DNA of 39,860 nt from a virus: the UHGV virus genome UHGV-0224961, one strand, 5' to 3'. This document shows positions 8,239-33,073 of the stretch, one piece after another. Position 1 is the stretch's first letter; each line of letters opens with the position of its first letter. Both the position numbers and the translations under genes were made by a program. Below the pieces are notes generated by a model. The model did not search any database. It saw only the letters and a program-made list of their open reading frames with translations, and had not been told where the DNA came from.

Positions 8239-8315
8239 TTACCTGATGGGTAATAAAATATTCTAGTATCTATTGATTTCATGTCTTATGTGGTTTTTAA
8301 TTACCTAAGGGGTAA
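8239..8315. promoter_or_regulatory. Two perfect TTACC-N5-GGTAA palindromes (8239-8253, 8301-8315) bracketing a TATCTA-N14-TATGTGGTT promoter-like motif
   Basis: Second palindrome ends 3 nt before the ATG at 8319. Confidence 0.55.
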
Positions 8316-8318
8316 ATC

Positions 8319-8663
8319 ATGAGAAAACAGATACAGGCTCTTGGTCGGCTCAAAACAGGCCAGATGAACAAAACAGAATCTGCGTATTGCCAGCACCTTG
8401 AGCTGCGTAAACGTGCAGGGGAAATCGCATGGTATCGATTCGAGGGTATCAAGCTGCGGTTAGCTGACAACACGTTCTATACGCCAGATTTCGCTGTGAT
8501 GCTCGCCACCGGAGAGATGGAACTGCACGAAGTGAAAGGTTTCTGGACCGACGACGCCAGGGTGAAAACCAAAGTCGCCGCAGATCAGTATCCGTTCCGA
8601 ATCATCGGGGTAACGGTTAAACCAAAGAAAGCAGGTGGTGGCTGGAACATCGAAGAGTTCTGA
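8319..8663 (+). CDS. Small PD-(D/E)xK-like nuclease (VRR-NUC/DUF1064-like)
   Basis: 114 aa; PDF...ELHEVKG arrangement consistent with a D-E-K nuclease core. Confidence 0.5.
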   Translation: MRKQIQALGRLKTGQMNKTESAYCQHLELRKRAGEIAWYRFEGIKLRLADNTFYTPDFAVMLATGEMELHEVKGFWTDDARVKTKVAADQYPFRIIGVTVKPKKAGGGWNIEEF

Positions 8664-8724
8664 ATCGACGATCTTTTTAGTTATCAATGTAATCAATAAG
8701 TTATGTGGATAAGCGAGGGTAAAG

Positions 8725-9153
8725 ATGGAAAGTAATATCAAAGGGTTAGTTGCCGCCGGGCATGAGATGGCTTCGGAACTGAAAGCAGAATGTGGTGCCG
8801 TTGATATGCGCAGTGTGGCAAAGCTGATCAGCGATTTGGCAACGCAACTGGAAGTGCAACTGGTGCGTGCTAATGCGCTGGCGGCGGAGAATGCAAAGCT
8901 GAAGAAGTTCTGCAAAGACGCTGCATTCGATGCCGATTACGAAGCAGAGCTAGGTATGGAGCGTGGTGGATTCAGTGATGCGCTTAACGAAATCAAAACC
9001 CCAGCCACCGATGCTTTTCTGGCTGAAGTACGGGCGCAGGGCGTGGAGATGGCTATGGAACATATGCAGTCGAGCGGTTCGTTAACATTTGGAGATTGCT
9101 ACATATCACTTAACGAGTTCGCCGCAGAGCTTCGCAAAGGAGGCAGCCAGTGA
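8725..9153 (+). CDS. Ea22-like family protein (paralog 1)
   Basis: C-terminal ATDAFLAEVRAQGV...FAAELRKGGSQ shared with the ORF at 10263. Confidence 0.55.
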   Translation: MESNIKGLVAAGHEMASELKAECGAVDMRSVAKLISDLATQLEVQLVRANALAAENAKLKKFCKDAAFDADYEAELGMERGGFSDALNEIKTPATDAFLAEVRAQGVEMAMEHMQSSGSLTFGDCYISLNEFAAELRKGGSQ

Positions 9154-9638
9154 CTGGAAATGCAGCAATCCTCGACATGTGCTGTGGCAGTCGCATGTTC
9201 TGGTTCGATAAGAATGACGACCGGGCGATATTTAGCGATATCAGAAAGGAAGAGCACACATTATGTGATGGACGACGCCTGATTATCAGTCCTGACCTGA
9301 TAGCTGATTTTCGTGCACTACCATTTGCAGACGCATCCTTTTCGATGGTTGTATTCGACCCTCCGCATCTTGAGCGTGTTGGTGATAACGCCTGGATGGG
9401 AAAGAAATATGGACGGCTGAATAAAGATACCTGGCGTGATGATTTGCGGCAGGGGTTTAAAGAAGCCTTTCGGGTGTTGTGGCCACACGGCGTTCTGATT
9501 TTTAAATGGAATGAAACGCAAATACCTGTTCGCCAGATATTGGCACTGACCGACAGAAAGCCTGTTATCGGTCAACGAACAGGAAAGGGTGACAAGACCC
9601 ACTGGATTATTTTTATGAAGGAGGCATCCAGTGAGTAA
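9150..9638 (+). CDS. Putative DNA amino-methyltransferase (DPPH motif)
   Basis: 162 aa; LDMCCGS (motif I-like) and VVFDPPH (motif IV-like); GTG start 6 nt after AAAGGAGG. Confidence 0.55.
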   Translation: MTGNAAILDMCCGSRMFWFDKNDDRAIFSDIRKEEHTLCDGRRLIISPDLIADFRALPFADASFSMVVFDPPHLERVGDNAWMGKKYGRLNKDTWRDDLRQGFKEAFRVLWPHGVLIFKWNETQIPVRQILALTDRKPVIGQRTGKGDKTHWIIFMKEASSE

Positions 9639-10275
9639 CCGTTTTTACATGATGTGCTTGCGTGAAACTGTGGGTAATAACGCCTCATTCCATTGCCATA
9701 ACGGCAATGGTTACAGTTCTGATATCGATCGCGCTCATGTTTACACGCTAGAAGAAGCCCAAAAAGCCTGGAATTGTGGGCGAGATATCGATCAGCCTGT
9801 TTGTGCCGATAGTGTGGATGCAATTGCTGTGTGGCACGTTGATTGCCAGTACATCCCTACAGAAAGCCTGATTGAGTCAGATTGCACTGCGTATGTGGCC
9901 TACAAAAAAGGTAGCTGGAACGGCAACGATGTTTACTGGCTTCAACACGGTGGATTGCCAACAGATGATTTCAGTAAAGCGACCATCTTTAGCGTCGCCA
10001 ACAAAAACGAACCAGGAATAGTTTGGTTGCCATTTCCCATTGCTGATGCAGCAAAGCGCCGGACGTTCAATATCAATAACTTTAACCGCAGAACAATGGT
10101 TCAGGGCGCAGGTTTGGTCATGCCTGACTGGTTGAAAGAGCAGAACAGAAGAAAGAAGTCGCGAAGCGGGAAGGTGCGTTGGAATTGTCCGCATTGCGGA
10201 AAAATCACCTGGCAGTACAGCCCATATGATTTTGAAGGCTGTAGTGATTACAACTGTGAAGGATGGCGAGAATGA
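9631..10275 (+). CDS. Hypothetical protein with C-terminal zinc-ribbon (CPHCG...C..C)
   Basis: 214 aa; overlapping gene starts typical of phage operons. Confidence 0.5.
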   Translation: MSNRFYMMCLRETVGNNASFHCHNGNGYSSDIDRAHVYTLEEAQKAWNCGRDIDQPVCADSVDAIAVWHVDCQYIPTESLIESDCTAYVAYKKGSWNGNDVYWLQHGGLPTDDFSKATIFSVANKNEPGIVWLPFPIADAAKRRTFNINNFNRRTMVQGAGLVMPDWLKEQNRRKKSRSGKVRWNCPHCGKITWQYSPYDFEGCSDYNCEGWRE

Positions 10276-10955
10276 CAATTGACTATCAGGTACTGCGCGA
10301 GGCGGCGGAACAGGCAACGCAAGATGAATGGGTAGCATATATTTTGCCGGGGCAAAACGGCACTTATCCTGCGCATACGTCTGAGGGTAGGCATTGCGGA
10401 TACTTTATTGACTGGCCTGGCATTGATGGACAGAGAAACGCTGGTGCCAATGCCCGTTATATCGCGGCTATCCCACCCAAAGTTGTGCTGGCTCTACTGG
10501 ATGAAATTAAGCGCCTGGAGGACACAAATATTGATGCTATGTGTCGAATTGCAGAGCTTGAGACTAATCTCGCGGCGCTGGTGGCGGAGAATGTGGGGCT
10601 AAAGGCGATATGTGATGACCGTCGCAGGTTCATCATGAATGGGGTGCAGATGGGTTATATCAAGGTGCCAGCAGCGGAAACAGATCCAGACCTTGAGACA
10701 ATTCGCATTGCTATATCACCACAAAAGCCCATTCCAGCCACTGATGCTTTCCTGTCTGAAGTGTGGGCGCAGGGGGTGGATGCTGCTATAGAAGCTGCAA
10801 AAAATCTGGTGGTCCAAGAATATGAGTATAAGGATTTCAAAGCGGCGCAGAGTGATTGCTGTATGCACCCTGGTTCAGACCTGGTAGGGAAGGTTGAAAT
10901 GACTGAGTGGTTAGTTGACTTTGCTGCCCAGCTTCGCAAAGGAGGCAACCAGTGA
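10263..10955 (+). CDS. Ea22-like family protein (paralog 2, mosaic)
   Basis: N-terminus IDYQVLREAAEQA resembles the ORF at 10952; C-terminus resembles the ORF at 8725. Confidence 0.55.
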   Translation: MARMTIDYQVLREAAEQATQDEWVAYILPGQNGTYPAHTSEGRHCGYFIDWPGIDGQRNAGANARYIAAIPPKVVLALLDEIKRLEDTNIDAMCRIAELETNLAALVAENVGLKAICDDRRRFIMNGVQMGYIKVPAAETDPDLETIRIAISPQKPIPATDAFLSEVWAQGVDAAIEAAKNLVVQEYEYKDFKAAQSDCCMHPGSDLVGKVEMTEWLVDFAAQLRKGGNQ

Positions 10956-11377
10956 GCGAAATTAATTACCAGGCACTGCGTGAGGCAGCACAGAACGCGA
11001 AAGATTTAGGTGAGATTAAGAATTACAAGCGAGGTGAGCAAGCTGTTGCCGAATTTGAGTCCTTAATAACGCCACGCATTGTGCTGGCGCTTCTGGATGA
11101 ACGGGAAAGAAACCAGCAATACATAAAACGCCGCGACCAGGAGAACGAGGATATTGCTCTTACTGTTGGGAAGCTGCGTGTTGAGCTTGAAGCCGCAGAG
11201 AAGCGCATTGCAGAACTGTCTGCTAGCCACAGCAAATTGCGCGACACAATGGCTGGCATCCACAACACAATCCGAATGGATGGCGGCTATACGCCACTGG
11301 CAGCAATCCTTAACGCTGCTAAACGCGCATATGAAGAATCAGCAAGCGCAGCTGGCATTCGCATCAAAGGAGAGTGA
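10952..11377 (+). CDS. Ea22-like family protein (paralog 3), coiled-coil
   Basis: N-terminus INYQALREAAQ and PRIVLALLDE shared with paralog 2. Confidence 0.55.
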   Translation: MSEINYQALREAAQNAKDLGEIKNYKRGEQAVAEFESLITPRIVLALLDERERNQQYIKRRDQENEDIALTVGKLRVELEAAEKRIAELSASHSKLRDTMAGIHNTIRMDGGYTPLAAILNAAKRAYEESASAAGIRIKGE

Positions 11378-11580
11378 GTGATATGGATAAAAATACCCCT
11401 GCTTACTGGAGTTTATCACTTGATACCGAATGTCCCAAATGTGGTCACAATTTCGATCTGCTTTGTGATCCAGATTTTTGGGAGTTTTCTGGAGCTAAAC
11501 AGGCATGTGAAGAAATAAAAGGTTACGAAACATGCTGTCCAGAATGTAACCATGAATTTAAAACAGATTTCGTGTATTGA
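11374..11580 (+). CDS. Small zinc-ribbon protein (CPKCG...CPEC)
   Basis: 68 aa with two CxxC pairs. Confidence 0.5.
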   Translation: MSDMDKNTPAYWSLSLDTECPKCGHNFDLLCDPDFWEFSGAKQACEEIKGYETCCPECNHEFKTDFVY

Positions 11581-11590
11581 GGCATAACAA

Positions 11591-12493
11591 ATGACCACTA
11601 TTACCAAAGAACAACTAATTGATCATATTAATGATCGCAAAGATGTCCGTCAGAGAATGTTGGATACCGCGACGGTTTCTTCTGGATTCCGAGAATATCT
11701 TGAAAGAGAACTTGCCACCGATCAGATTGCTCTGGCGTCGCTGGAAGCTGAACCTGTCCTGTATCAGTCCTGCACTCGCCCCACCTGGAATAGCGGTGTT
11801 CCGTGGACGGAATGGAAAGAACGTAGTCGTGAGGGCTACGAAGACGATTTGCGCTTTACAGACACGCCTGACCATGCCGGTTGGATATACAAATGTCGAA
11901 AACTATATACCACTCCGCCAGCGCCGATAGCGTTAGAGTCCATTGAAAACGCAATTGAATACATCCGCAGTATCGCTTTTCACATCGATGAAGACGATTA
12001 CCACGGCAAACATATTGCGTATTTCATGCAGCAAGCATTGGCCTGGCTGGAAGGGCATTCATGCAGCGACGACAGACTGGGTAAAGCCGAGAATCAACCA
12101 GTACGCGGCAACCAGGCTGCCGAATCCAATCGCGGTAATGAGTGGACTGGCAATCCTGATATTGATAACGCCATCATCATGCTCGACCGCATAGATACGG
12201 CGGAAAGTTGCGATGATGACCGTATTGAGGCTGTTAAGGCTGTTTTGCGTAGACTGGCTGGCAACTATCCGGTAACTCCGGATGGTTGGATAAGCTGTAG
12301 TGAGCGAATGCCGGAAGACACCAAAATGTTACTGGCATTTAGTCAAGGTGAAATCGTGGCCGCATATTGGAACTGGGTTGTAAATCCAATTGATTACAAA
12401 AAATATAGAGCTTTCACGTATTTATCAGGATATATCTTGGATGACGTAACTCACTGGATGCCGCTACCAGAACCTCCGCAGGAGGTGAAGTGA
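11591..12493 (+). CDS. DUF551-domain phage protein
   Basis: C-terminal WISCSERMPE...HWMPLPEPP signature recalled for DUF551. Confidence 0.55.
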   Translation: MTTITKEQLIDHINDRKDVRQRMLDTATVSSGFREYLERELATDQIALASLEAEPVLYQSCTRPTWNSGVPWTEWKERSREGYEDDLRFTDTPDHAGWIYKCRKLYTTPPAPIALESIENAIEYIRSIAFHIDEDDYHGKHIAYFMQQALAWLEGHSCSDDRLGKAENQPVRGNQAAESNRGNEWTGNPDIDNAIIMLDRIDTAESCDDDRIEAVKAVLRRLAGNYPVTPDGWISCSERMPEDTKMLLAFSQGEIVAAYWNWVVNPIDYKKYRAFTYLSGYILDDVTHWMPLPEPPQEVK

Positions 12494-12843
12494 TGGACTA
12501 TTCACAGTTAAGTGATTTTGAAATTAACAGAATGGTAGGAGACATAATTTTTAAAGGCCTTTGGGCGTGTAAACCGGAAACATCAGGGAATAACACCAAC
12601 AAATGGTATTACGGAAATACTGATACAACTTTTGAGCCATTAAACCCTTTACCTGACTACTGCAATAATCCATCGGATGCATGGCCTATTATTGTTGATA
12701 ATAAAATCAGTCTAACCTGCCACCAATCTCGCGGTGAGTGGTCAGCTGTTTTTAATACCGAGAATATTTGCTTTCATGCGAATAATCCACTCCGAGCCGC
12801 CATGATTGTATTTCTCATGATGCAGGAAAATCAGAATGGCTAA
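12490..12843 (+). CDS. NinX-like (DUF2591-like) protein
   Basis: N-terminus MDYSQLSDFEINRMV resembles NinX family proteins as recalled. Confidence 0.4.
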   Translation: MMDYSQLSDFEINRMVGDIIFKGLWACKPETSGNNTNKWYYGNTDTTFEPLNPLPDYCNNPSDAWPIIVDNKISLTCHQSRGEWSAVFNTENICFHANNPLRAAMIVFLMMQENQNG

Positions 12844-13174
12844 ATCAGCAGCAGAGCGCAAAGCCGCTCAGAGAGCCAGACAAGCTGCATCTGGTGTGCG
12901 TAAGCTGGAAATTGTGCTTGATGCTCAGGAAATTGAAATGCTGGAGCGTAACTGTGCCACGCGTCGCCCCGGGCGTGCGCCTTACGAATTTGGTGAGTAT
13001 ATAGCGTTACTGATCCGCCAGGATGATGCACGCGTGCGCGGGCGTATAAAATCGATCAGCAGAAAATGTTGCGGTAAGTGCGGCGAGAGAGTTCCAGTTA
13101 ATTCATGCCCGTGTAATGGTGACTCGCAATGCTGGATGACTAAAGGCTGGCATGAAACGAAATTAATAGTGTGA
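12836..13174 (+). CDS. Hypothetical protein with C-terminal Cys cluster; candidate regulator
   Basis: 112 aa; basic N-terminus; C-terminal CCGKCG...CPC...C; stop codon lies inside the GTGACATGTCAC palindrome. Confidence 0.5.
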   Translation: MAKSAAERKAAQRARQAASGVRKLEIVLDAQEIEMLERNCATRRPGRAPYEFGEYIALLIRQDDARVRGRIKSISRKCCGKCGERVPVNSCPCNGDSQCWMTKGWHETKLIV

Positions 13175-13182
13175 CATGTCAC
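13171..13182. promoter_or_regulatory. Perfect 12-bp palindrome GTGACATGTCAC at an operon end
   Basis: Same palindrome at 32649-32660 and a variant at 15436-15447. Confidence 0.45.
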
Positions 13183-13223
13183 GAGTAGATTATGCATGAT
13201 GAATTTGATGGGTTTTGAATACT

Positions 13224-13249
13224 GCCGCCAACTATGGCGGCTTTATTTT
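13224..13249 (+). terminator. Rho-independent terminator before the terminase operon
   Basis: gccgcca-acta-tggcggc followed by tttatttt. Confidence 0.65.
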
Positions 13250-13260
13250 GCATGGTACTA

Positions 13261-13293
13261 TTACCACAACGGTAACTATTACCACGGTGGTTA
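13261..13293. promoter_or_regulatory. Operator-like TTACC-ACAAC-GGTAA (13261-13275) plus imperfect TTACC-ACGGT-GGTTA (13279-13293) immediately upstream of terS
   Basis: Same palindrome family as at the repressor gene. Confidence 0.5.
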
Positions 13294-13295
13294 TG

Positions 13296-13889
13296 ATGCC
13301 TGCTGAACCTAAAACCTATAAACGCAAATCAACGCAATTTAAGCCACTAACAGCAATGCAGGAGGCTTATTGCCAGTCATACATCAAAACGCCTGAAAAC
13401 CAGACTCAGGCAGCGATTAACGCAGGATTCTCCCCAAATACAGCGGCAGTTAAAGCCAGTGTCATGATGCGCGATGAACGCATTCAAAAACGGATTGCCG
13501 AGTTGATGGAGGAGCGCAACAAACGAATGCGCGTCAGTGCTGATTACGTTCTCATGCGCCTGGTGGAGATCGACCAGATGGACGTGATAGACATCCTCAA
13601 CGACGATGGGAGCCTTAAACCAATCCGCGAGTGGCCGAAAATCTGGCGCACTACGCTTAGCGGCTTTGATCTGTCATCGACCATCATGAACATGAACGAG
13701 GATTCGATAGAGACAATCCTCAAAAAAATTAAATGGCCTGACAAGGTGAAGAACCTTGAGCTGATTGGTAAGCACGTCGATGTCAATGCATTCAAAGAAC
13801 GCCTGGATGTTAATGTGAATGTGACAATTGCTGATCGCATAGCGGCAGCCAGGAAGAGACTGAAAGAACGTCAGGATGGCAATCAGTGA
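13296..13889 (+). CDS. Terminase small subunit
   Basis: Directly upstream of and overlapping TerL; start taken at ATG 13293/13296 (the track ORF begins at a TTG at 13215 that runs through the operator and terminator). Confidence 0.65.
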   Translation: MPAEPKTYKRKSTQFKPLTAMQEAYCQSYIKTPENQTQAAINAGFSPNTAAVKASVMMRDERIQKRIAELMEERNKRMRVSADYVLMRLVEIDQMDVIDILNDDGSLKPIREWPKIWRTTLSGFDLSSTIMNMNEDSIETILKKIKWPDKVKNLELIGKHVDVNAFKERLDVNVNVTIADRIAAARKRLKERQDGNQ

Positions 13890-15361
13890 CAGATGCAGCG
13901 TTATCTCCTGAAGAGCAGTTGATCGAGGATATTGCAGGGTTCACTCACGATCCGCTTGGCTATGCCCTCTATGCGTTCCCGTGGGGGGAAGAGGGGACTG
14001 AATTAGCACATGCCACCGGTCCACGTCAGTGGCAGGCTGATGCGTTCAGAGAGATACGTGATCACCTGCAGAATCCAGAGACGCGATATCAGCCGCTTAT
14101 GCTGGCACGTGCTTCTGGTCACGGTATTGGTAAATCCGCATTCATCTCAATGCTGATCAACTGGGGCATGTCCACTTGCGAGGATTGTAAGGTCGTGGTG
14201 ACCGCCAACACCGACAACCAGCTACGAACGAAGACCTGGCCGGAAATTATCAAGTGGTCGAACCTTGCTATCACGAAAGACTGGTTTACCTGTACCGCTA
14301 CCGCGATGTACAGCAATGACCCTGGGCACGACAAGCGGTGGCGAGCTGACGCAATCCCTTGGTCTGAGCACAACACTGAGGCATTCGCCGGACTACACAA
14401 CGAGCGCAAACGCATCATCGTGGTATTCGATGAGGCGTCGAACATTGCGGATCTGGTGTGGGAAGTTGCCGAGGGTGCGCTAACGGACGAAGACACTGAG
14501 ATTATCTGGGTGGCGTTCGGAAACCCGACGCGTAATACCGGACGTTTCCGCGAATGTTTCCGCAAATATAAACACCGCTGGAAAACTGCGCAGATTGACA
14601 GCCGGACGGTGGAAGGCACTAACAAACAGCAGTTGCAGAAATGGGTTGATGACTACGGGGAAGACAGCGACTTCGTTAAAATCCGTGTGCGCGGCATATT
14701 CCCGGATGCATCTGAATTGCAGTTTATCCCTACCGGACTTACTGACGAGGCAATGAAACGGGTGGTCACCGCTGCGCAGGTGGCACATGCTCCGGTGATA
14801 ATCGGCGTTGACCCGGCATACTCCGGCGTTGATGACGCTGTGATATACCTGCGGCAGGGGCTGCACAGTAAGGTGCTGTGGACTGGCAACAAGACCACTG
14901 ACGATCTGATTATGGCGAAGCGTATCGCTGACTTTGAAGACCAGTACCAGGCTGACGCGGTGTTCATCGACTTCGGTTACGGTACCGGGCTGAAGTCAAT
15001 CGGTGACGGTTGGGGGCGTACATGGCAACTTGTTCCGTTCGGTGGCGCGTCTACTGACCCGCAGATGCTAAACAAGCGCGGGGAGATGTTCAACAGCTGC
15101 AAAACGTGGCTGAAGCTGGGCGGGATGCTGGATGACCAGGAAACAGCGGACGACCTGTCGGCGGCAGAGTACAAAGTTCGCGTGGACGGTAAAATCGTTA
15201 TCGAACCGAAGGAAGATATCAAGGAGCGGCTTGGGCGTTCGCCGGGTAAAGGCGATGCGCTACTGCTGACGTTTGCTTTCCCTGTGTCTAAGCGCCTGCG
15301 AATTCCCGGGCAGCAGAACCAGCAAGGTAAGGCCATCACAGATTACGATCCCTATGCTTAA
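13886..15361 (+). CDS. Terminase large subunit
   Basis: 491 aa; Walker A-like ARASGHGIGKS; C-terminal nuclease-like domain with acidic residues; GTG start overlapping the terS stop. Confidence 0.9.
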   Translation: MTDAALSPEEQLIEDIAGFTHDPLGYALYAFPWGEEGTELAHATGPRQWQADAFREIRDHLQNPETRYQPLMLARASGHGIGKSAFISMLINWGMSTCEDCKVVVTANTDNQLRTKTWPEIIKWSNLAITKDWFTCTATAMYSNDPGHDKRWRADAIPWSEHNTEAFAGLHNERKRIIVVFDEASNIADLVWEVAEGALTDEDTEIIWVAFGNPTRNTGRFRECFRKYKHRWKTAQIDSRTVEGTNKQQLQKWVDDYGEDSDFVKIRVRGIFPDASELQFIPTGLTDEAMKRVVTAAQVAHAPVIIGVDPAYSGVDDAVIYLRQGLHSKVLWTGNKTTDDLIMAKRIADFEDQYQADAVFIDFGYGTGLKSIGDGWGRTWQLVPFGGASTDPQMLNKRGEMFNSCKTWLKLGGMLDDQETADDLSAAEYKVRVDGKIVIEPKEDIKERLGRSPGKGDALLLTFAFPVSKRLRIPGQQNQQGKAITDYDPYA

Positions 15362-15411
15362 TCCGCTGGTGGGGATAATGTCGTTGATATCCTCTGATGA
15401 GGATAAAACAA

Positions 15412-15447
15412 AGCCAGCTTATCGGCTGGCTGTTTGTGACGTGTCAC
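15412..15447 (+). terminator. Hairpin (agccagc/gctggct) followed by palindrome GTGACGTGTCAC downstream of TerL
   Basis: Weak T-run; may act as a partial terminator or protein-binding site. Confidence 0.3.
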
Positions 15448-15488
15448 GACATTAAAATCCATCGAATTCGTATTTCATGATTCACACC

Positions 15489-15514
15489 TTAAAAAAATGC
15501 CCGGCGAACCGGGC
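15489..15514 (-). terminator. Rho-independent terminator on the minus strand
   Basis: gcccgg-cgaa-ccgggc with a 7-A run on plus (U-run on minus). Confidence 0.55.
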
Positions 15515-15591
15515 GAACTGGAAGCAATGAGTTATGCCTTCCGTGGCTGTACTGGTTTACAGCATGAAGTCATCGCAATGGCGTCCTGCTG

Positions 15592-15634
15592 TAAAAAGGG
15601 CGGTGATAGTCCTTCAAGGGAAACCATCACCGCC
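15592..15634 (-). terminator. Minus-strand terminator-like hairpin about 45 nt 3' of the tRNA
   Basis: 9-bp stem ggcggtgat/atcaccgcc followed on minus by UUUUU. Confidence 0.5.
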
Positions 15635-15677
15635 AAGCCCCTGGAACTTCTGGCATCACGGTCCTTAGGCGTGATTC

Positions 15678-15754
15678 TGGCGTGGCATGCAGGATTCGAA
15701 CCTGCGACCAACCGCTTAGAAGGCGGTTGCTCTGTCCAACTGAGCTAATGCCAC
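15678..15754 (-). tRNA. tRNA-Arg (anticodon UCU), phage-encoded
   Basis: Reverse complement folds as a canonical 77-nt cloverleaf: acceptor GTGGCAT/ATGCCAC, D-stem GCTC/GAGC, anticodon stem ACCGC/GCGGT, loop CTTCTAA, T-stem GCAGG/CCTGC, TTCGAAT loop, discriminator G, CCA encoded. Confidence 0.85.
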
Positions 15755-16076
15755 AACGCTGAGAGCACTTAGCCTGTTAAGGCGCCACACTTTGTCGCGG
15801 CTCCATAAATGCTCTCATCGTTGTACCCTCGTCTCTTCCGAGGCGTCACACCGAATCGCCGGGATGGTGAATCCCCGTGCGCGGAATAAAACCGCTCGAC
15901 TTGCACATTCCGGCTACCTGGTTCGTTTGCCCGAGCAAGGGAGGGTGCCCCTTAAACGTATCCAGACCGCTATCGTCGCATGTGCCATACGCCGTACTGC
16001 TCAAAATAAAAGCTCACTCCACCTGTTCAATTTAACGACAAGCCAGTCAGGTTAGTAACTGGAATGAACTCTTTGG

Positions 16077-16143
16077 TTACCTGAAAGGTAATAATTCTCG
16101 CGTTAAATGTCAACTATCTACGATAAATAAATCATATGTGGTT
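16077..16143. promoter_or_regulatory. Perfect operator TTACC-TGAAA-GGTAA (16077-16091) plus TATCTA-N14-TATGTGGTT motif (16115-16143) upstream of the head operon
   Basis: A minus-strand TTGACA -35-like hexamer at 16108-16113 points leftward toward the tRNA. Confidence 0.5.
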
Positions 16144-16181
16144 AAATTGGTAATAATTTAATTGCGTACGGAGTCATTGAT

Positions 16182-16388: not shown

Positions 16389-16402
16389 CCGGAGTCATTG
16401 AA

Positions 16403-18375: not shown

Positions 18376-18377
18376 TC

Positions 18378-19073: not shown

Positions 19074-19081
19074 GAGAGGAA

Positions 19082-20074: not shown

Positions 20075-20125
20075 CGCCTGTTATTAACCTGTGGGTCGTA
20101 ACAGACCCACTAATGGAGAAAGAAG

Positions 20126-20563: not shown

Positions 20564-20564
20564 G

Positions 20565-27881: not shown

Positions 27882-29680
27882 GTTACTTTGGCCTTAATCC
27901 AGTAAACCAGAATCAGCAGCTTGACGAAGCAGCATCAAATCCAGCTGGCTTTAACAGCGATGTTGGTTTTTTCGACAATGCTGTAGGAGCGGCATTGTCT
28001 GGTTTGTACTCAGGGCTGGTGGCAAAGCCAGATCAGTTGCTATGGGCAGGGATGGATAAAATCGTATCCCCGATTGCTCAGTTTGTTAACGAAAACACCT
28101 CGCTCAATGATACTTCAGTTTCATACATTGCCGAGCAGAGAAAACTAGCAGAGCAGCAGGTTAAGCGGCTGACGCCTGATGCCGCGACAACTGGAACCGC
28201 TGGGCAGGTTCTTTATGGGTTGTTCGATATGGGCGGGCAGGCTGTTGTCGGTACAACGCTCGGTGGTTCTGTCGGAGGTGCAGCAGCGGTAACTTCGCTA
28301 CAGGGTTTTTCTGAGTTTGAACGGCTGACAGCACAGGGTGTTGATTTCAGGACGGCGCAGGAAGCGGGATTAGTGCAGGGCATTACTGCTGGTGCCGGAA
28401 CGCTGATCCCTATGAGCCTCGGGTTACGTGCTGGTGGTGCGCTGGCGGAAGGTGTGGCGGCTCAGCTTGCGCGGACGGGTGAGAGTTCAGTGCGACGCGC
28501 CGCAGCAACAGCAGTACGTGCAACGCCAGATATTGCCTATGCCGCAGGTACAAATATTGCGTTCGGTATGGCACAGCGTGGGCTTACTGCAAAAACACTT
28601 CGTGATGGTGGCTATAGCGAAATGGCTAACCAGTATGATGTGTTGGATCGACAGGCAATTGCTATTGATGCTGTTCTTGGGGTGGCGTTTGGTGGTGTCG
28701 GCAGATTTATTAACTCTCGCGGCGAGTCTACAAACGCACCAAATTTTTCACCAGTTGATATCGATGCTGCACTGGCGGCGAATGCCGCTCATCATGCTGA
28801 AATTGATATTGCGCCCGGCGTGCCGATCAACGTGCTTTCGCGCAATTCTCACATTCAGGCTCTGCGAAAAGCTATGTCTGATGTTAGCCAGGGGAGACCT
28901 GTAGACGTTGCCAGCATTGTTGAGTCTGCATCTTTCAGTGAAATTCCTTGGCGCAAGAGTCTGCTGTCTCAGGCAGTTAATGAGGCTCTGTCATCTGTAG
29001 ATGATGGAGTAACGGCGCGCGCTATAGAAAATCGGTTGCTTGAAGAACAGGCCGCGCAGCTTTTGCCGCGTGGAGATAGACAGGTTTACCAGTCTGAAAT
29101 CGCTAATAGCCAACGAATTATTGAAAATCTCACTGAACAGCGTGCACAAATTCTTGCAGAAGAGCCAACCGGTAGCGGTAAAGCTTTGTCTCGTGCTCGA
29201 TCAGATAAACAGGCCAGACTTCGCGATATTGATCAACGAATCCGGCAGGCACAAGAACGCCTGGAATTTTCCCGTAACGCGTTGGCACCGCACGAGCCTG
29301 GCGGTCAGTTTTTTGAAGCTCGAGCAGAACTGGCTCGGAGACAGCAGGCAGAAAGTGAACTTAATGCTCAGGCTGTTTCATTCTATAAAACAGCAGAGGT
29401 CAGGACGCCAGACGAAGTAGCTCCTTTTGAGCCTGATAAAATATTGCAACAGGCAGAACAAAAAATGATGTCAGATCAGGCAGGAGATATTGATCTGCGC
29501 ATAGCTGAAGACTCGCTGCTTGAATCACCTGACATGATAATCACCGTGCTGGATGATGATGGTAATCCACAATCGCGCAGTGCGCGTGAAGTACTGGATG
29601 AAGCGAACAGGGAAAGTGAGCAGGTAATACAGGATTCCAGCCTGTTTGATGTTGCTGTGGCGTGTTTCTTGAGAGGTTAA
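27878..29680 (+). CDS. Internal core / ejection protein
   Basis: 600 aa; Ala/Gly-rich N-terminal half. Confidence 0.55.
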   Translation: MSYFGLNPVNQNQQLDEAASNPAGFNSDVGFFDNAVGAALSGLYSGLVAKPDQLLWAGMDKIVSPIAQFVNENTSLNDTSVSYIAEQRKLAEQQVKRLTPDAATTGTAGQVLYGLFDMGGQAVVGTTLGGSVGGAAAVTSLQGFSEFERLTAQGVDFRTAQEAGLVQGITAGAGTLIPMSLGLRAGGALAEGVAAQLARTGESSVRRAAATAVRATPDIAYAAGTNIAFGMAQRGLTAKTLRDGGYSEMANQYDVLDRQAIAIDAVLGVAFGGVGRFINSRGESTNAPNFSPVDIDAALAANAAHHAEIDIAPGVPINVLSRNSHIQALRKAMSDVSQGRPVDVASIVESASFSEIPWRKSLLSQAVNEALSSVDDGVTARAIENRLLEEQAAQLLPRGDRQVYQSEIANSQRIIENLTEQRAQILAEEPTGSGKALSRARSDKQARLRDIDQRIRQAQERLEFSRNALAPHEPGGQFFEARAELARRQQAESELNAQAVSFYKTAEVRTPDEVAPFEPDKILQQAEQKMMSDQAGDIDLRIAEDSLLESPDMIITVLDDDGNPQSRSAREVLDEANRESEQVIQDSSLFDVAVACFLRG

Positions 29681-29685
29681 ATTAA

Positions 29686-32160
29686 ATGAGACAGGAATGT
29701 ATACAAGCGGTCCAGCAGGCGGCGCAGCGCACGTTAACGGCGCGAGAAATACAGAACATTGAAGACCGCATTTATCGAAATATGCGCTCCATTGCTCGTG
29801 ATGACCCGATGTCGTGGCGACAACTTTCCGAATCAGAACGGTTGTATCGTGCAGCACAATTGGCATCTGAAGAATTACAGCGAGAAGCGGCATTAAAGAA
29901 ACGTCGTGTGGCCCTCACTATAGCCGCACGTCAGAGATTGGATAAATTTATCAATAGCTATCAAGGGGCTGATGGGAAACTTGGCGCTCTTAACCGTACT
30001 ATTGCTTTTAATGCAGACGGTAAATCGAATTTCCTCTCTGTTGAATCCAGAACAAAAGCCACCCGTGATTATGCATTGAGTCAATTGCAGGAGGCATTCG
30101 AAGCAGTTGATCCTCGCTTTTTTGGTCTGTTTGAAGATGAAGCGGGCGTACGTGACCTGGTATATGAAATGCGGGGGCAAAATACTGGCAATGCTAAAGC
30201 AAGAAAAGGTGCTAAGGCGTGGAGAGAAGTTACAGAGCTGCTGCGCCGCAGGTTTAATGATGCTGGTGGGGACATTGGCTATCTCGAAAACTGGGGGATC
30301 CCTCAACATCATTCTATGGAAAAGGTTGGGGCGGTATCAAAAGATAAATGGGTTAGCGATGTTATAGGTAAGCTGGATCGCAAATATTATACCCGAGCCG
30401 ATGGACAACTGATGAACGATGCCGAGTTGTCTGCATTTCTTGGAGAGGCTTATAACACGATCGCTACTGGTGGGCTGAATAAGCTTACTGATACCGGAAT
30501 GCGAATTTCCGGCGCACGTGCTAACCGTGGTAATGCATCACGACAGATACATTTCAAAGATGCAGATTCCTATCTGCAATATCAGCAACTTTATGGCGAT
30601 CGCTCTCTATGGGAAATCATGGTCGGTCACCTTGAAGGTATCAGTAAAGATATTGCACTGGTGGAAACATATGGCCCAAACCCCGATCATGTTTTCCGCT
30701 CTCTTCTTGATCAGGTGAAGGCAGAAACGGCAACAGCTAACCCGAGTAAAACCGGTAAAGTCGAGCGGCTGGCGAACAACACAGAGAATCTGTACAACTT
30801 TATTTCCGGAAAGACACAGCCTGTAGCGAATCCGCACATCGCGCGATGGTCTGACAATATCCGCAACTGGCTGGTTGCCAGCAGACTCGGATCCGCGTTG
30901 CTGTCATCGTTCTCTGATCTTGGAACCATGTATCTGTCTGCGAAGGTTACCAACCTTCCAATGAACCAGTTATTCCGCAACCAGCTTGAAGCTATGGACC
31001 CAACGAACCGTACAGAACTTGCGCGGGCGCGCCGCGCTGGTCTGGCGATGGAATCTCTACTTGGCAGCGTTAACCGCTGGGCGATGGATAATATGGGGCC
31101 GTCTGTGTCTCGTTGGGCTGCAACGGCGGTAATGCGTGCCAGTGGGCTTACAGCATGGTCAGATGCGCACAAGCGCGCCTATGGCGTAACCATGATGGGA
31201 AGCCTGGGAGAAGTAGTGTCACGGACACCAGACCTTCGTAGCCTCGATGATTCTGATTTTCGTATCCTGAAAAGCAAAGGGATTACTGACACAGACTGGA
31301 GCGTATGGAAGCTGGCGCAACAGGAGGACTGGGGGAACGGCAATAATACGATGCTGACACCGGAAAGCATTATGCGTATCCCTGATTCAGCAGTTAAACA
31401 TCTTGGTGAGCCTGAACGCGTGAAATTTGAGGCAATGCGTAAACTGCTCGGTGCCGTAACTGAAGAAGTTGATATGGCTGTTATTACACCGGGAGCACGT
31501 GAGCAACTGATAACCGGTTCTGGTATTCAGCGTGGAACATGGAAAGGTGAATTAACGAGAAGTGTTTTCCTGTTTAAATCGTTCCCTATCTCGGTGGTTA
31601 TGCGTCACTGGTCACGCGCTATGGGTATGCCGTCTGCTGGTGGGCGTGCGGCATATATTGCGACGTTTATTGCCAGTACGACCATTCTTGGCGCTTTGTC
31701 GCAGCAACTTAACGACCTTGCGTCTGGTCGTAATCCTCGCGAGATGACAGGAGAAGATGCTGCTAAATTTTGGCTTGGTGCTCTACTGAAAGGTGGTGGT
31801 CTTGGCCTTTACGGTGACTTTTTATTGTCAGATCACACTAGGTACGGAAGCGGCGCGCTGGCGTCGATGCTTGGCCCGGTAGCTGGTCTGGTTGATGACG
31901 TAGTGAAGATTGCTCAGGGCATACCGTTAAATGCTGTGGAAGGGAAGAGTGAGCAGACTGGTGGTGATCTGGTGAAGCTGGGGAAAGGTTTGATGCCAGG
32001 TGCGAATCTCTGGTACTTAAAGGCGGCTCTCGATCATATGATCTTTAACCAGATGCAGGAGTATTTTTCACCAGGCTATTTGCGTAAAATGGAGCAACGT
32101 TCGAAGAAAGAGTTTAACCAGACATACTGGTGGCGACCTCAGGATGTCACTCCGCAATAA
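29686..32160 (+). CDS. Internal core / ejection protein (gp16-like position)
   Basis: 824 aa; last large gene before the tailspike region. Confidence 0.55.
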   Translation: MRQECIQAVQQAAQRTLTAREIQNIEDRIYRNMRSIARDDPMSWRQLSESERLYRAAQLASEELQREAALKKRRVALTIAARQRLDKFINSYQGADGKLGALNRTIAFNADGKSNFLSVESRTKATRDYALSQLQEAFEAVDPRFFGLFEDEAGVRDLVYEMRGQNTGNAKARKGAKAWREVTELLRRRFNDAGGDIGYLENWGIPQHHSMEKVGAVSKDKWVSDVIGKLDRKYYTRADGQLMNDAELSAFLGEAYNTIATGGLNKLTDTGMRISGARANRGNASRQIHFKDADSYLQYQQLYGDRSLWEIMVGHLEGISKDIALVETYGPNPDHVFRSLLDQVKAETATANPSKTGKVERLANNTENLYNFISGKTQPVANPHIARWSDNIRNWLVASRLGSALLSSFSDLGTMYLSAKVTNLPMNQLFRNQLEAMDPTNRTELARARRAGLAMESLLGSVNRWAMDNMGPSVSRWAATAVMRASGLTAWSDAHKRAYGVTMMGSLGEVVSRTPDLRSLDDSDFRILKSKGITDTDWSVWKLAQQEDWGNGNNTMLTPESIMRIPDSAVKHLGEPERVKFEAMRKLLGAVTEEVDMAVITPGAREQLITGSGIQRGTWKGELTRSVFLFKSFPISVVMRHWSRAMGMPSAGGRAAYIATFIASTTILGALSQQLNDLASGRNPREMTGEDAAKFWLGALLKGGGLGLYGDFLLSDHTRYGSGALASMLGPVAGLVDDVVKIAQGIPLNAVEGKSEQTGGDLVKLGKGLMPGANLWYLKAALDHMIFNQMQEYFSPGYLRKMEQRSKKEFNQTYWWRPQDVTPQ

Positions 32161-32169
32161 GGAAGTGTT

Positions 32170-32343
32170 GTGTTTTTAATTATTTTGAGTGTGATAATTT
32201 CTGGTGGGTTGTTATTTATTGACCGCTACAAATATTTTCTTAACCCTCAGACTCAAGCTATTTGCTGGTTCATCTTTGTTGTGCAGGGAATAGTTCTTGT
32301 TGCAAGCCTTATTGAGGGGAGGCCTCTGATTTTTACTGGGTAA
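32170..32343 (+). CDS. Small hydrophobic protein (57 aa; GTG start)
   Basis: Hand-translated VFLIILSVIISGGLLFIDRYKYFLNPQTQAICWFIFVVQGIVLVASLIEGRPLIFTG; GGAAG RBS; below the ORF-track cutoff. Confidence 0.3.
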   Translation: MFLIILSVIISGGLLFIDRYKYFLNPQTQAICWFIFVVQGIVLVASLIEGRPLIFTG

Positions 32344-32355
32344 ATAGGTGACTAC

Positions 32356-32652
32356 ATGCAAGCTATAGGATTCATTGTTTATATCGTCGTTGGTCTTTTT
32401 CAGTTGGCAGCAATTATGGCTGGGCTTGAATCATGGTGGGGATTGCACTGGATAATTGCAGCCCCCATTGCTTTCATCGTGAGCTATATTCCATTTGTTG
32501 GAGCGATTGTTGGTATGGTTGGCGCTGTGGATGTATGGCGGTGGGAGTGGTGGCAGGCTGGCCTTCTCTTCTTTGGTGGGATCATCTTTGCTATTGTCTG
32601 CGGTGGAATGTCATCATTTTTCGAATGGCTATCATTCAGAAAAAGAGCGTGA
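32356..32652 (+). CDS. Small integral membrane protein (about 3 TM segments)
   Basis: 98 aa, very hydrophobic; stop codon lies inside GTGACATGTCAC. Confidence 0.5.
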   Translation: MQAIGFIVYIVVGLFQLAAIMAGLESWWGLHWIIAAPIAFIVSYIPFVGAIVGMVGAVDVWRWEWWQAGLLFFGGIIFAIVCGGMSSFFEWLSFRKRA

Positions 32653-32660
32653 CATGTCAC
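32649..32660. promoter_or_regulatory. Perfect 12-bp palindrome GTGACATGTCAC
   Basis: Identical to 13171-13182; followed by the hairpin at 32661-32678. Confidence 0.45.
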
Positions 32661-32686
32661 AGGCCGCTCTTGCGGCCTTTAAATTT
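32661..32686. terminator. Terminator-like hairpin aggccgc-tctt-gcggcct between convergent genes
   Basis: 7-bp stem followed by ttaaattt. Confidence 0.5.
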
Positions 32687-32942
32687 ACCGGGTTTGTTTT
32701 CGTAATTGTTCGGCACAATAGTCGAGATGTGTTTGCAGATCCCGCATAGACATCTGTGAGCTGGTGACGTAGTTAATCAGTGCAGTCAGTTCGGCAAGTG
32801 GGCCATCGACATTAAATCCATCCTTATCGAGATCCCGGAGTAATTTCATCAAGTGCGATCCCTCCACCAGTGACCTGACGCCTCCCGGCGTGTGAATCCT
32901 TTCGGTAAATCCGTCTTCCAGTGGATAGTGATACTGCTGCAT
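32685..32942 (-). CDS. Small protein (85 aa) behind a LexA box; candidate SOS-inducible antirepressor
   Basis: Start ATG 32942 with GGAGAAG RBS; LexA box 22-37 nt upstream; an alternative start at 33008 would place the box inside the coding sequence. Confidence 0.5.
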   Translation of the reverse strand: MQQYHYPLEDGFTERIHTPGGVRSLVEGSHLMKLLRDLDKDGFNVDGPLAELTALINYVTSSQMSMRDLQTHLDYCAEQLRKQTR

Positions 32943-32963
32943 CTTATCTTCTCCATGCAATAA

Positions 32964-32979
32964 CTGTATATTTATACAG
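32964..32979. promoter_or_regulatory. LexA (SOS) box CTGT-ATATTTAT-ACAG
   Basis: aACTGTATATTTATACAGTa matches the E. coli consensus TACTGT(AT)4ACAGTA with one spacer change; contains a TATAAAT -10-like element on the minus strand. Confidence 0.7.
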
Positions 32980-33018
32980 TAGCAAATAATTTGTTTGCTA
33001 TCCAGCACGTTTTGCGAA

Positions 33019-33073
33019 TCACCTGAAAGGTAATATCTGTTCGTATTTATGGGTTATCTATCCATATGTGGTT
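33019..33073. promoter_or_regulatory. Operator-like TCACC-TGAAA-GGTAA (33019-33033) plus TATCTA...TATGTGGTT motif (33055-33073) upstream of the tailspike
   Basis: Same motif family as at 8239 and 16077. Confidence 0.5.

Follow-up and report, generated by a model that had tools for sequence, protein, structure and literature searches.

Operators of the epsilon15/SPC32H type (ATTACC-N5-GGTAAT) belong to a system with the repressor Rep and the antirepressor Ant; Rep reportedly binds as a tetramer whose DNA-binding pairs form in trans (PMC9638917). The stretch analyzed here (the window; UHGV-0224961, 39,860 nt) is a Uetakevirus genome, that of a temperate phage resembling phiV10 and epsilon15. 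In this genome TATGTGGTT is the strong right half of a conserved 14-bp imperfect dyad (consensus AwyCrTATrTGGTT), which is a putative protein-binding site. The 14-mer resembles the Rep operators in being a dyad of ~15 bp with an ACC/GGT core, in its spread over many operon starts and in standing in phase with them. It differs in its half-sites (AwyCA/TGGTT), in an ACC-GGT spacing one bp longer, in its constrained center and in an invariant T where the operators have A.

With the CI/Cro switch of phage lambda (OL/OR) the locus shares a divergent pair of paralogous helix-turn-helix (HTH) proteins, operators overlapping promoter cores, and PL operators that flank the -35/-10. In lambda both proteins use the same operators, at OL and OR only, whereas the second motif of this phage is distinct from the Rep operator, missing from OR and present at six promoters, including late ones. 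The L5-type stoperators of mycobacteriophages are likewise regulator sites scattered genome-wide rather than gathered in one immunity region. Stoperators are asymmetric, number 20-30, lie within transcription units and block elongation; the sites described here, in contrast, are six, symmetric and all in promoter cores (Table 1).

Table 1. Features discussed in the text (window coordinates).
Feature	Position	Strand	Remarks
AlpA-family protein, candidate antiterminator reader	2690-2938	-	Pfam E 3e-5; present in all relatives
Motif copy in PL spacer, ATGCGTATTTGGTT	5178-5191	+	Weak left half; weight-matrix score 13.2; 2 mismatches to consensus
Rep repressor gene, candidate trans factor reading TTACC/GGTAA	5292-5876	-	Matches SPC32H repressor structure 5D50, E 4e-42
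Cro-like 76-aa HTH protein, best candidate motif reader (inferred)	6031-6261	+	PHROG 35 'transcriptional repressor', E 9e-13
Motif copy after cro and terminator, before replication genes, AACCAAATGTGGTT	6337-6350	+	Same place in all genomes examined
gp40, zinc-finger-like, candidate activator	6412-6612		
Rep operator pair bracketing site-1 promoter	8239-8315	+	8239-8253 and 8301-8315, centers 62 bp apart; palindrome search
TATCTA, site 1	8267-8272	+	8267-8268 highly polymorphic; 8269-8272 (TCTA) invariant
Motif copy, site 1, in promoter spacer of nin-like operon, TGTCTTATGTGGTT	8282-8295	+	
gp49-like protein, ribbon-helix-helix-like, Cys-rich, just before terS, candidate activator	12836-13174		
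Rep operator, site 2	16077-16091	+	One half doubles as -10 (TACCTT) in a leftward promoter, TTGACA(16113-16108)-N17, that is conserved
TATCTA, site 2	16115-16120	+	Not conserved; 16115-16117 among the region's most polymorphic positions
Motif copy, site 2, before gp3/portal/head genes, AATCATATGTGGTT	16130-16143	+	Mean minor-haplotype count 0.29
Rep operator, site 3, TCACCTGAAAGGTAA	33019-33033	+	
TATCTA, site 3	33055-33060	+	Variable in 65 haplotypes; its final base doubles as 14-mer position 1
Motif copy, site 3, before tailspike gene, ATCCATATGTGGTT	33060-33073	+	Discrete conserved block
Motif copy before lysis operon, AACCATAAATGGTT	36448-36461	+	Weight matrix and degenerate consensus

A sequence-only reading of this DNA had described TATCTA followed by TATGTGGTT downstream of operators at three operon starts. 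The strings are indeed there. TATGTGGTT has exactly three exact matches (8287, 16135 and 33065), all intergenic and on the plus strand, each 30-45 nt 3' of a TTACC-N5-GGTAA palindrome; shuffled sequence gave a mean of 0.38, with 2 of 100 shuffles reaching three. The combination TATCTA-N(3-20)-TATGTGGTT matched three times, at the coordinates given in that reading (N14, N14 and N4), and in none of 100 shuffles, so it is not due to chance. The palindrome itself has 12 matches in the window (0.66 expected). A weight matrix and the degenerate consensus added the PL, post-cro and lysis copies; the element is common to several operon starts, as had been claimed, but the count is six transcription units, including the leftward early PL, rather than three. 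At ≤2 mismatches the degenerate consensus gave 10 strand-matches (one stray, the rest at five of the six sites) versus 2.8 expected, a number equaled in 0 of 100 shuffles. Positions with a matrix score of ≥15 numbered 4-7 per genome, compared to 0.15-0.4 in Markov random sequence. Note that the post-cro and PL copies, absent from the matrix training set, serve as independent validation; both reappear at the corresponding positions of all or most genomes.

The two strings behave differently in the homologous regions of related phages, where the 14-mer with TATGTGGTT is kept and TATCTA is variable or replaced. The window has 13 exact copies of TATCTA (11.2 expected), and five of them adjoin motif sites, so that in this genome the two do not co-occur at random; a TATCTA-TTGACA string of the site 1 type lies on the minus strand at PL (5206-5195). 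At site 1, however, only TCTA is constrained, as the flank of a -35 (CTA-TTGAyw, found at PL too), and at site 2 TATCTA is replaced by GGCCTA in epsilon15, AGCCTA in SPC32H and CCCTA in Tyrion. Among 36-37 distinct haplotypes of near-identical phages at sites 1 and 2, the mean minor-haplotype count was 0.14-0.29 for the 14-mer versus 4.8-5.5 for the first 2-3 bases of TATCTA; the linkers adjoining the nearly invariant 14-mer and the N5 of the Rep operators vary as well. By this comparison TATCTA is not a conserved unit, and only CTA flanking a -35 is kept. The spacing had been described correctly as 14 nt at the first two sites, with 4 nt at the third, but the identity carries no weight, because TATCTA is variable or replaced in relatives. 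The proposed two-part architecture also fails as a -35/-10 pair, since spacings of 14, 14 and 4 nt fall outside 16-18 and no T stands at -7 in TATGTG. It is the 14-bp dyad that forms the conserved unit.

Complementary positions of the dyad are 1/14, 4/11, 5/10 and 7/8, and at least 4 of the 7 pairs are symmetric in 60 of 71 sites. Its ideal form, AACCATATATGGTT, is found 5' of the lysis genes in phiV10 and Tyrion. The left half is degenerate, with site 1 matching at only ~2 of 7 symmetric positions. T14 is invariant in 71/71 sites, where canonical Rep operators carry A; C4 and T8 are fixed, and the center, TATr, is under constraint, unlike the hypervariable N5 of Rep operators. All six window sites lie between genes, and they are conserved in prophages from at least 11 enterobacterial genera. 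PL lacks the motif in epsilon15-type phages, as does site 1 in the prophages of Rahnella, Pantoea and Samsonia; some promoters can therefore do without it. The motif is confined to this immunity module, and structural relatives outside the module do not carry it. None of the records of epsilon15, phiV10, SPC32H, Tyrion and BUCT554 marks the 14-mer.

Each site overlaps a core promoter. At PL the motif occupies 14 of the 17 spacer bases of a predicted leftward promoter (TTGACA 5200-5195, AATCAT 5177-5172); BUCT554 (ATCCTTATGTGGTT) and Tyrion (ATCCATATATGGTT) have strong homologous copies, epsilon15/SPC32H none. Site 1 matches this layout, with TTGATT (8273-8278), three nucleotides, the 14-mer and TTTAAT (8296-8301) between flanking operators; in 37 haplotypes the 3-nt linker is variable and the 14-mer nearly invariant. 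The post-cro copy varies only at positions 5, 9 and 10 (63 haplotypes) and abuts the -35, its final TT opening TTGATC (6349-6354); TTGATC-N16-17-CAAAAT (6372-6377) is retained over a spacer that changes in sequence. At the three late promoters (head, tailspike and lysis) the motif takes the place of the missing -35, and conserved -10-like hexamers follow 7-10 nt 3' of it. At site 2, where no -35-like hexamer is present, GGTAAT (16149-16154) stands 5 nt past the motif and overlaps the -10-like AATAAT (16152-16157); every relative retains this copy, the Rahnella, Pantoea and Klebsiella prophages among them. Site 3 varies only at motif positions 3, 9 and 10, between linkers variable on both sides (65 haplotypes); 5 nt past it lies the conserved GGTAATAGAAT (33079-33089), of which TAnAAT (33084-33089) is kept across genera. 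DNA upstream of the lysis site is mosaic, with a recombination break at the motif's left edge, and motif-N7-[T/C]AT[G/A]AT is kept (50 haplotypes). No sigma-70 consensus promoter was found on the plus strand at sites 1-3. The distance of the shared element from the likely -10 is not constant: the motif lies 0, 7-10 or 21 nt upstream of it. This variability is more in keeping with a regulator site than with an element recognized by polymerase, and a single mode of action cannot cover all sites.

The geometry relative to Rep half-sites is fixed. Rep has Pfam HTH matches at residues 21-61 and 106-147. Its site-1 operators combine invariant half-sites with hypervariable N5 spacers, and OL carries the same 62-bp pair (5158-5172 and 5220-5234). 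The epsilon15 record annotates the equivalent of the site-1 operator as a 'repressor' protein_bind feature and marks 'repressor' sites before terS, gp3, the tailspike gene and a RuvC-like gene. In relatives at site 2, the distance from TGTCAA to TACC is fixed at 17 nt and that from TGTCAA to the motif varies. At the lysis site a full upstream operator, where present, always begins 43-45 nt before the motif; 36 of 50 haplotypes have no canonical operator within 130 nt, and the window has GGTAA (36438-36442) 5 nt upstream of the motif. Overall, a Rep pentamer (GGTAA/TTACC) lies within 14 nt of the motif at 51 of 60 distinct sites, as compared to 6% of random positions, and in 45 of these 51 it is exactly 5 nt from the motif edge. 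The outer pentamers of the motif (AwyCA/TGGTT) are thus separated from the Rep pentamer by the intra-operator spacing, suggesting one in-phase array on the same helix face. This geometry, and that with the promoter hexamers, is observed directly, as are the element, its copies, its conservation and its symmetry.

Protein binding, the binder's identity and the sign of regulation we infer. As the earlier reading had suggested, a phage-specific factor is the most plausible reader. Our best, still tentative, interpretation is that the 14-mer is an operator-type site for a dimeric HTH regulator, phased with Rep half-sites, with the Cro-like paralogue as the best candidate. The HTH of this protein aligns with the N-terminal HTH of Rep (27% identity, E 0.004). 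Its helix AGTTxxY[IVM]xxH is conserved in 18/18 distinct homologues, down to 38% overall identity, and the recognition helix is kept wherever the motif occurs; the HTH of the Rep C-terminal domain, on the other hand, differs between window-type and epsilon15-type phages despite identical motifs. The invariance of T14 and the constrained TATr center point to a reader distinct from the Rep N-terminal domain. Against a Cro analogue, which predicts action at OR, no good motif copy was found there (best scores 3.8-11.5); apart from a related dyad, ATTCAGATATGAAT, OR has just weak look-alikes, 14-28 nt ahead of the start of rep. The Cro-like, gp40, gp49-like and AlpA-like proteins co-occur with the motif in every genome, and among the genomes examined we found no relative with changed specificity, and hence no covariation favoring the Cro-like protein over the other three.

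Alternatively, the motif could be a non-canonical auxiliary Rep site, which we regard as doubtful. A tetramer would place its four N-terminal domains on an operator or half-site and the in-phase AwyCA/TGGTT, silencing the core promoter in lysogens, in keeping with the reported tetramer binding with pairs in trans (PMC9638917) and the 5D50 match of the window Rep. The pentamer-N5-pentamer spacing to canonical half-sites equals that within operators, the ACC/GGT core is common to both, and the second terS operator has GGTTA as a half-site. Moreover, the upstream operators of the late promoters (-60 to -75) are too distant to occlude polymerase, so the core needs covering, and the lysis genes must stay silent in lysogens even in the 36 of 50 haplotypes lacking a canonical operator. 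However, the non-canonical bases T14, C4, T8 and TATr are not free to vary, the ACC-to-GGT spacing is N6 instead of N5, and neighboring canonical operators elsewhere are N2-N3 apart, not N5.

A dedicated late or middle activator other than the Cro-like protein, its box replacing the -35 at late promoters, is unlikely. The late promoters do combine good -10 elements, no -35 and a common box, as with lambda CII (TTGC-N6-TTGC), the T4 MotA box and Mu Mor/C, but the motif is a dyad whose center falls at about -27 to -30 (at PL and site 1, -19.5), atypical for an activator and not at -30 to -43. It also lies inside spacers with a good -35 and, post-cro, upstream of a -35. Candidates would be the gp49-like protein (PHROG 536 'transcriptional regulator'), encoded by the last early gene, and gp40; each gene lies 3' of a motif-bearing promoter in all genomes. 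Pantoea phage AH07, however, has a gp49-like homologue (57% identity) without the motif, the putative beta-strand has one outward-facing residue that differs between phages with an identical motif, and such an activator does not account for Rep pentamers being phased at exactly 5 nt.

Still less probable is a loading site for a processive antiterminator, read by the AlpA-family protein in the manner of the Q-binding element at lambda PR' or the Pseudomonas AlpA-binding element. Those elements sit between -35 and -10 (PMC7969949), as the motif does at PL and site 1, the window and all relatives carry an AlpA-family gene, and intrinsic terminators separate the operons. The known element, GGGACG-N5-GGTA, is however not a dyad and is unrelated in sequence (PMC7969949), and at the other four of six sites the motif overlaps or precedes the -35 region. 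Furthermore, RefSeq calls the epsilon15 protein 'excisionase and transcriptional regulator', no other excisionase being evident, and with its own promoter each operon has no need of readthrough.

Very improbable, too, is a reader from the host, such as a conserved DNA-binding nucleoid protein or global regulator, with which the phage would tune all its promoters. Such a reader predicts the motif's constancy across phages of many enterobacterial genera, but not its confinement to this immunity module or the exact phasing with Rep pentamers, which indicates a phage partner. On inspection against their consensus sequences, the motif is unlike the sites of IHF, DnaA, CRP, Fis, LexA and PhoP, the sigma-54 consensus and the GntR-type TGGT-N-ACCA.

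Finally, plain sigma-70 hexamers (TATCTA as -35, TATGTG as -10) or a duplication remnant, without a separate factor, are scarcely credible: the strings are intergenic and 5' of genes, and the 39-nt colinearity of PL and site 1 (TATCTA-TTGAyw-N3-14mer-hexamer-TACC) could reflect common descent, but besides the spacings, the missing T and the polymorphism of TATCTA given above, the distance from the 14-mer to the conserved -10 differs between sites, and DNA between the conserved blocks diverged freely while the 14-mer did not.

In the proposed mechanism, a dimeric HTH regulator, for which the Cro-like paralogue of the Rep N-terminal domain is the best candidate, would read the dyad as an operator-type site inside six promoter cores: PL, post-cro replication, nin-like, head, tailspike and lysis. 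At PL and site 1 the motif fills the -35/-10 spacer, a position in which bound protein would repress. At the three late promoters, where it lies at about -36 to -20, a bound motif could either replace the -35 contact, resulting in activation, or hold the promoter shut. Rep and the dyad regulator would thus meet or compete at each of the six promoters.

We assigned the window to Uetakevirus, temperate podophages of the phiV10/epsilon15 type, because the region of site 1 (upstream of the nin-like operon) is 97-98% identical to Escherichia phages HEMP4, phiV10 and related records, and that of site 2 (upstream of the head operon) is 98.8% identical to phiV10 and 74-85% identical to epsilon15, SPN1S, Tyrion and BUCT554. 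Uetakeviruses (epsilon15, phiV10, SPC32H/SPN1S) find use as reporters and in biocontrol, and they are the model for antirepressor-driven induction. The operator of their repressor, Rep, consists of inverted TTACC/GGTAA pentamers with 5 unconstrained bases between them. The window contains 12 TTACC-N5-GGTAA palindromes (0.66 expected), counterparts of features that the GenBank record of epsilon15 already annotates as 'repressor' protein_bind at OL and ahead of terS, gp3/portal, the tailspike and the RuvC-like gene. Among near-identical phages the N5 spacers were the most polymorphic intergenic positions and the half-sites were invariant, which is a clean natural repressor footprint.

Motif copies, regulator genes and neighbouring features in the window
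Feature	Position	Strand	Remark
Motif, site 1	8282-8295	+	nin-like operon
Motif, site 2	16130-16143	+	head operon
Motif, site 3	33060-33073	+	tailspike
Motif, post-cro	6337-6350		just after cro and terminator; in every genome examined
Motif, PL spacer	5178-5191		strong in BUCT554 and Tyrion; absent in epsilon15-type phages
Motif, lysis operon	36448-36461		brings the window total to six, all intergenic
-10-like hexamer, site 3	33084-33089		TAGAAT
Rep repressor gene	5292-5876	-	match to solved SPC32H repressor 5D50, E 4e-42
Cro-like gene	6031-6261		76-aa HTH protein
gp40 gene	6412-6612		
gp49-like gene	12836-13174		last early gene
AlpA-family gene	2690-2938	-	
Rep operator N5 spacers (examples)	8244-8248, 8306-8310, 16082-16086		hypervariable
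Dyad ATTCAGATATGA(AT)	5891-5904		inverted, 15-28 nt before rep start codon
tRNA-Arg(tct) gene	15678-15754	-	leftward of site 2
TTGACA-N17-TACCyT promoter	16085-16113	-	-10 inside site-2 Rep operator
Intrinsic terminator before terS	13224-13241		
Rep operators before terS	13261-13275, 13279-13293		adjacent; second uses GGTTA
LexA-box-like palindrome	32964-32979		before leftward ant gene
Lysis leader	36498-36520		ATGCAyAkTAAACGGTGG...

The sequence-only reading had proposed that TATCTA followed by TATGTGGTT marks a common promoter architecture at site 1, site 2 and the tailspike (site 3). TATGTGGTT occurs exactly three times, at these places and always on the plus strand (shuffle mean 0.38; three copies reached in 2/100 shuffles), and the composite TATCTA-N-TATGTGGTT has three matches as well, its gaps being 14, 14 and 4 nt, but none in any of 100 shuffles. 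Thus the observation holds and is non-random. It was incomplete in that the window carries six copies of the underlying motif rather than three, and TATCTA does not hold up as a conserved half of the element. At site 2, epsilon15, SPC32H and Tyrion have GGCCTA, AGCCTA and CCCTA, respectively, in place of the hexamer, with no change in TATGTGGTT or the bases around it. We then counted variants among 36-37 distinct haplotypes from 80 IMG/VR contigs with near-identical portal genes, with the invariant half-sites and hypervariable N5 spacers of the Rep operators as a built-in positive control. The first 2-3 bases of TATCTA were among the most polymorphic positions in the two intergenic regions (mean minor-haplotype count of 5.5 at site 2 and 4.8 at site 1), compared to values of 0.29 and 0.14 for the nearly invariant 14 bases ending in GGTT. 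TATCTA was likewise variable at site 3 (65 haplotypes). The exact hexamer is not in excess in the window (13 copies, 11.2 expected), with five copies adjoining motif sites. Its constrained portion is (T)CTA only, the flank of a -35 hexamer (CTA-TTGAyw) at site 1 and, on the opposite strand, at PL.

TATCTA and TATGTG do not form a sigma-70 pair: the spacings of 14, 14 and 4 nt differ from the required 16-18 bp, TATGTG ends in G instead of the required T at -7, and TATCTA is polymorphic or absent in relatives. A sigma-70 consensus scan of the whole window detected no plus-strand promoter at sites 1-3. A minus-strand candidate at site 1 (AAGACA-16-TAGAAT) was dismissed on two grounds, polymorphism of its -7 T and the lack of the hexamer in other genera.

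Alignment of the regions upstream of five operon starts from six genomes generalised TATGTGGTT to the 14-mer AwyCrTATrTGGTT. In phiV10 and Tyrion, the copy preceding the lysis genes is a perfect palindrome, AACCATATATGGTT. When a weight matrix was trained on four site classes, it recovered two classes outside the training set, the post-cro and PL-spacer copies. Sites scoring at least 15 numbered 4-7 per genome, versus 0.15-0.4 in random sequence, and a search with the IUPAC consensus allowing up to 2 mismatches returned 10 strand-matches (2.8 expected; 10 reached in 0/100 shuffles). Among 71 distinct sites, positions 1, 4, 8, 11, 12, 13 and 14 were nearly invariant and positions 1/14, 4/11, 5/10 and 7/8 were complementary, the right half being the stronger. 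The annotated records of epsilon15, phiV10, SPC32H, Tyrion and BUCT554 do not mark the motif. The motif is a real, conserved cis-regulatory dyad in a known phage group, apparently undescribed.

Promoter positions were deduced from conserved hexamers. The literature read contained no description of how Uetakevirus late genes are switched on, and literature searches found no transcription-start data for the genus. PL and site 1 share a common layout: an operator, CTA-TTGAyw as -35, 3 free bases, the 14-mer, a -10-like hexamer and a second operator, with the paired operators 62 bp apart. At the post-cro copy the final TT of the motif starts TTGATC; TTGATC-N16/17-cAAAAT persists although its spacer varies in sequence, the pattern that characterises a true promoter. 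No -35-like hexamer is seen at the head, tailspike and lysis sites, and a conserved -10-like hexamer lies 7-10 nt downstream of the motif. At site 2 this is AATwAT inside GGTAATwAT (AATAAT in the window), at site 3 TAnAAT, in a conserved block with GGTAAT and a variable 5-nt linker, and at the lysis site [T/C]AT[G/A]AT. From these positions, the motif thus always overlaps a core promoter, in three different registers. The interpretation given by the sequence-only reading is partly supported. The DNA upstream of the lysis site is mosaic, with the break at the left edge of the motif. A full Rep operator within 130 nt of this copy was absent in 36/50 haplotypes; where present, it begins 43-45 nt before the motif.

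Several neighbouring features were noted. The conserved leftward promoter at site 2 faces the tRNA-Arg(tct) gene and an upstream moron, which makes site 2 a divergent promoter region; in SPC32H, too, a tRNA-Arg occupies this place. Directly before the first lysis-operon gene lies a conserved short upstream reading frame or leader, kept across very different upstream contexts; the phiV10 version is an ORF of 6 codons that stops 4 nt short of the ATG. The probable start of terS is 13297 (ATGCCTGCTGAA, as in epsilon15), rather than the TTG at 13215. Upstream of the gene come an intrinsic terminator and then two Rep operators that reach the ribosome-binding site and may constitute a roadblock arrangement; neither the 14-mer nor a clear promoter was found at 13224-13297. 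The same tandem layout is seen at site 1 in Rahnella, Pantoea and Samsonia prophages. Finally, the LexA-box-like palindrome CTGTATATTTATACAG precedes the antirepressor-like ant gene, whose identity is supported by PHROG 450/1760 and for which 32956 is a likelier start codon than the listed GTG at 33008. The palindrome fits SOS control of the antirepressor, as reportedly occurs in SPC32H.

We analyzed the spacing between the motif and Rep half-sites. A GGTAA or TTACC pentamer was present within 14 nt of the motif edge at 51/60 distinct sites, compared to 6% of random positions. In 45 of those 51 the distance was exactly 5 nt (18 upstream GGTAA, 16 downstream GGTAA and 11 downstream TTACC), which is also the gap between the two pentamers inside a Rep operator. 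Rep pentamers and the outer pentamers of the motif thus combine into a single array that repeats every 10 bp, which speaks for a physical relation of Rep to the reader of the motif, via competition or joint binding. Apart from this strict phasing with repressor half-sites at six promoters, its unusual feature, the motif is an ordinary kind of element.

To define the distribution of the motif, species-representative genomes were scanned with the large terminase. Prophages were recovered from Erwinia, Scandinavium, Klebsiella, Pseudocitrobacter, Buttiauxella, Rahnella, Citrobacter, Superficieibacter, Pantoea, Pseudescherichia and Samsonia, and all have Rep operators and the motif at homologous places. 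Distant structural relatives in other bacterial orders (terminase identity up to 58%) have neither, and also lack homologues of the Cro-like, gp40 and gp49-like proteins and of Rep, save one partial 38% match to Rep in a single relative. Given this joint presence and absence, the motif travels with the immunity and early module. A search for heteroimmune or specificity-shifted relatives found none among the enterobacterial phages, all of which keep operators and motif. There is thus no covariation to exploit, since relatives have both elements or neither, the latter also being without the regulator genes. Note that the Samsonia erythrinae prophage is a mosaic with Uetakevirus-type early genes and a different head module. 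At its tailspike promoter (14400-14480 of that prophage) the 14-mer has TTACC and GGTAA placed symmetrically around it, each at a distance of 7 nt (TTACC upstream, GGTAA downstream), resembling a Rep operator split open by the motif.

Which protein reads the motif? Our best candidate, suggested by sequence relationships, is the Cro-like protein (PHROG 35, 'transcriptional repressor'). Its HTH aligns with the N-terminal HTH of Rep (E 0.004), and its helix AGTTxxY[IVM]xxH is conserved down to 38% overall identity. A paralogue of the Rep domain should recognise a dyad of comparable size whose half-sites are related, and the motif is of this kind. OR, the expected Cro site, yielded no good motif copy, just weak look-alikes close to where rep begins and a related dyad, ATTCAGATATGAAT. 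A related but distinct dyad, ATTCAGATATGA(AT), lies just downstream of the PR -10 in epsilon15-type phages (epsilon15 33405-33418) and in inverted orientation before rep in window-type phages; it could be another regulator site in OR. The gp40, gp49-like and AlpA-family proteins are as co-distributed with the motif as the Cro-like protein, and distribution cannot discriminate the Cro-like from the AlpA-like protein because both are confined to the phage group of the motif.

Given the in-phase 5-nt spacing to canonical pentamers, Rep may take part in joint binding. The motif itself does not fit the definition of a Rep operator: its best reading is ACC-N6-GGT, with a T after GGT (T14) in 71/71 sites and a conserved TATr centre instead of the free N5. 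Because these differing bases are invariant, the N-terminal domain of Rep alone is probably not the reader. The other HTH-like region of Rep (residues 106-147, Pfam HTH_3) is probably not the reader either: window-type and epsilon15-type phages have identical motifs yet differ in the putative recognition helix of this region. There is weak evidence against the gp49-like protein, since Pantoea phage AH07 has a 57%-identical homologue and no motif. This 112-aa protein (PHROG 536, 'transcriptional regulator') is basic at its N-terminus and Cys-rich at its C-terminus (CCGKCG...CPC...C), carries a ribbon-helix-helix-like RKLEIVLDAQEIEMLE segment and had no Pfam or PDB match; N15 (gene 46), phiKO2 and phages of Yersinia, Vibrio and Aeromonas encode homologues. 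Compared by eye with consensus sequences, the motif fits none of the host-factor sites considered (IHF, DnaA box, CRP, Fis, PhoP, OmpR, HipB and RutR/GntR-type), nor the sigma-54 promoter consensus.

The putative site works in the manner of an operator or an activator box. Its placement over the -35 region of the head, tailspike and lysis promoters, which have a good -10 and no -35, would suit a CII/MotA/Mor-C type box. It lies in the spacer with a good -35 at PL and site 1, and upstream of the -35 post-cro. Placement between -35 and -10, as in a Q/AlpA loading element, is found at PL and site 1 only. The AlpA-binding element, GGGACG-N5-GGTA between -35 and -10 (PMC7969949), has no sequence resemblance to the motif. 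An RNA element (leader, nut/put-like) was rejected: the right half is invariant while the left degenerates without compensation, and Rfam on the window matched a tRNA only.

A far-reaching scheme, which we regard as unlikely, is that Rep pentamers and Cro-like pentamers are interleaved at one 10-bp phase at nearly every promoter as a genome-wide two-protein switch. The two proteins would compete, or even form a hetero-complex, on the same DNA face, and the Cro-like protein would double as a late-gene activator replacing the missing -35, so that no separate late activator or antiterminator would be needed.

In conclusion, a second conserved cis-element at six promoters, phase-locked to Rep half-sites, provides a concrete handle that is cheap to test, comprising one 14-mer, a few candidate proteins and six predicted transcription starts. 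As an annotation signature, AwyCrTATrTGGTT at 5 nt from GGTAA/TTACC marks promoters in a widespread group of enterobacterial prophages. The motif may account for how lysis and structural promoters without a nearby full Rep operator stay silent in lysogens.
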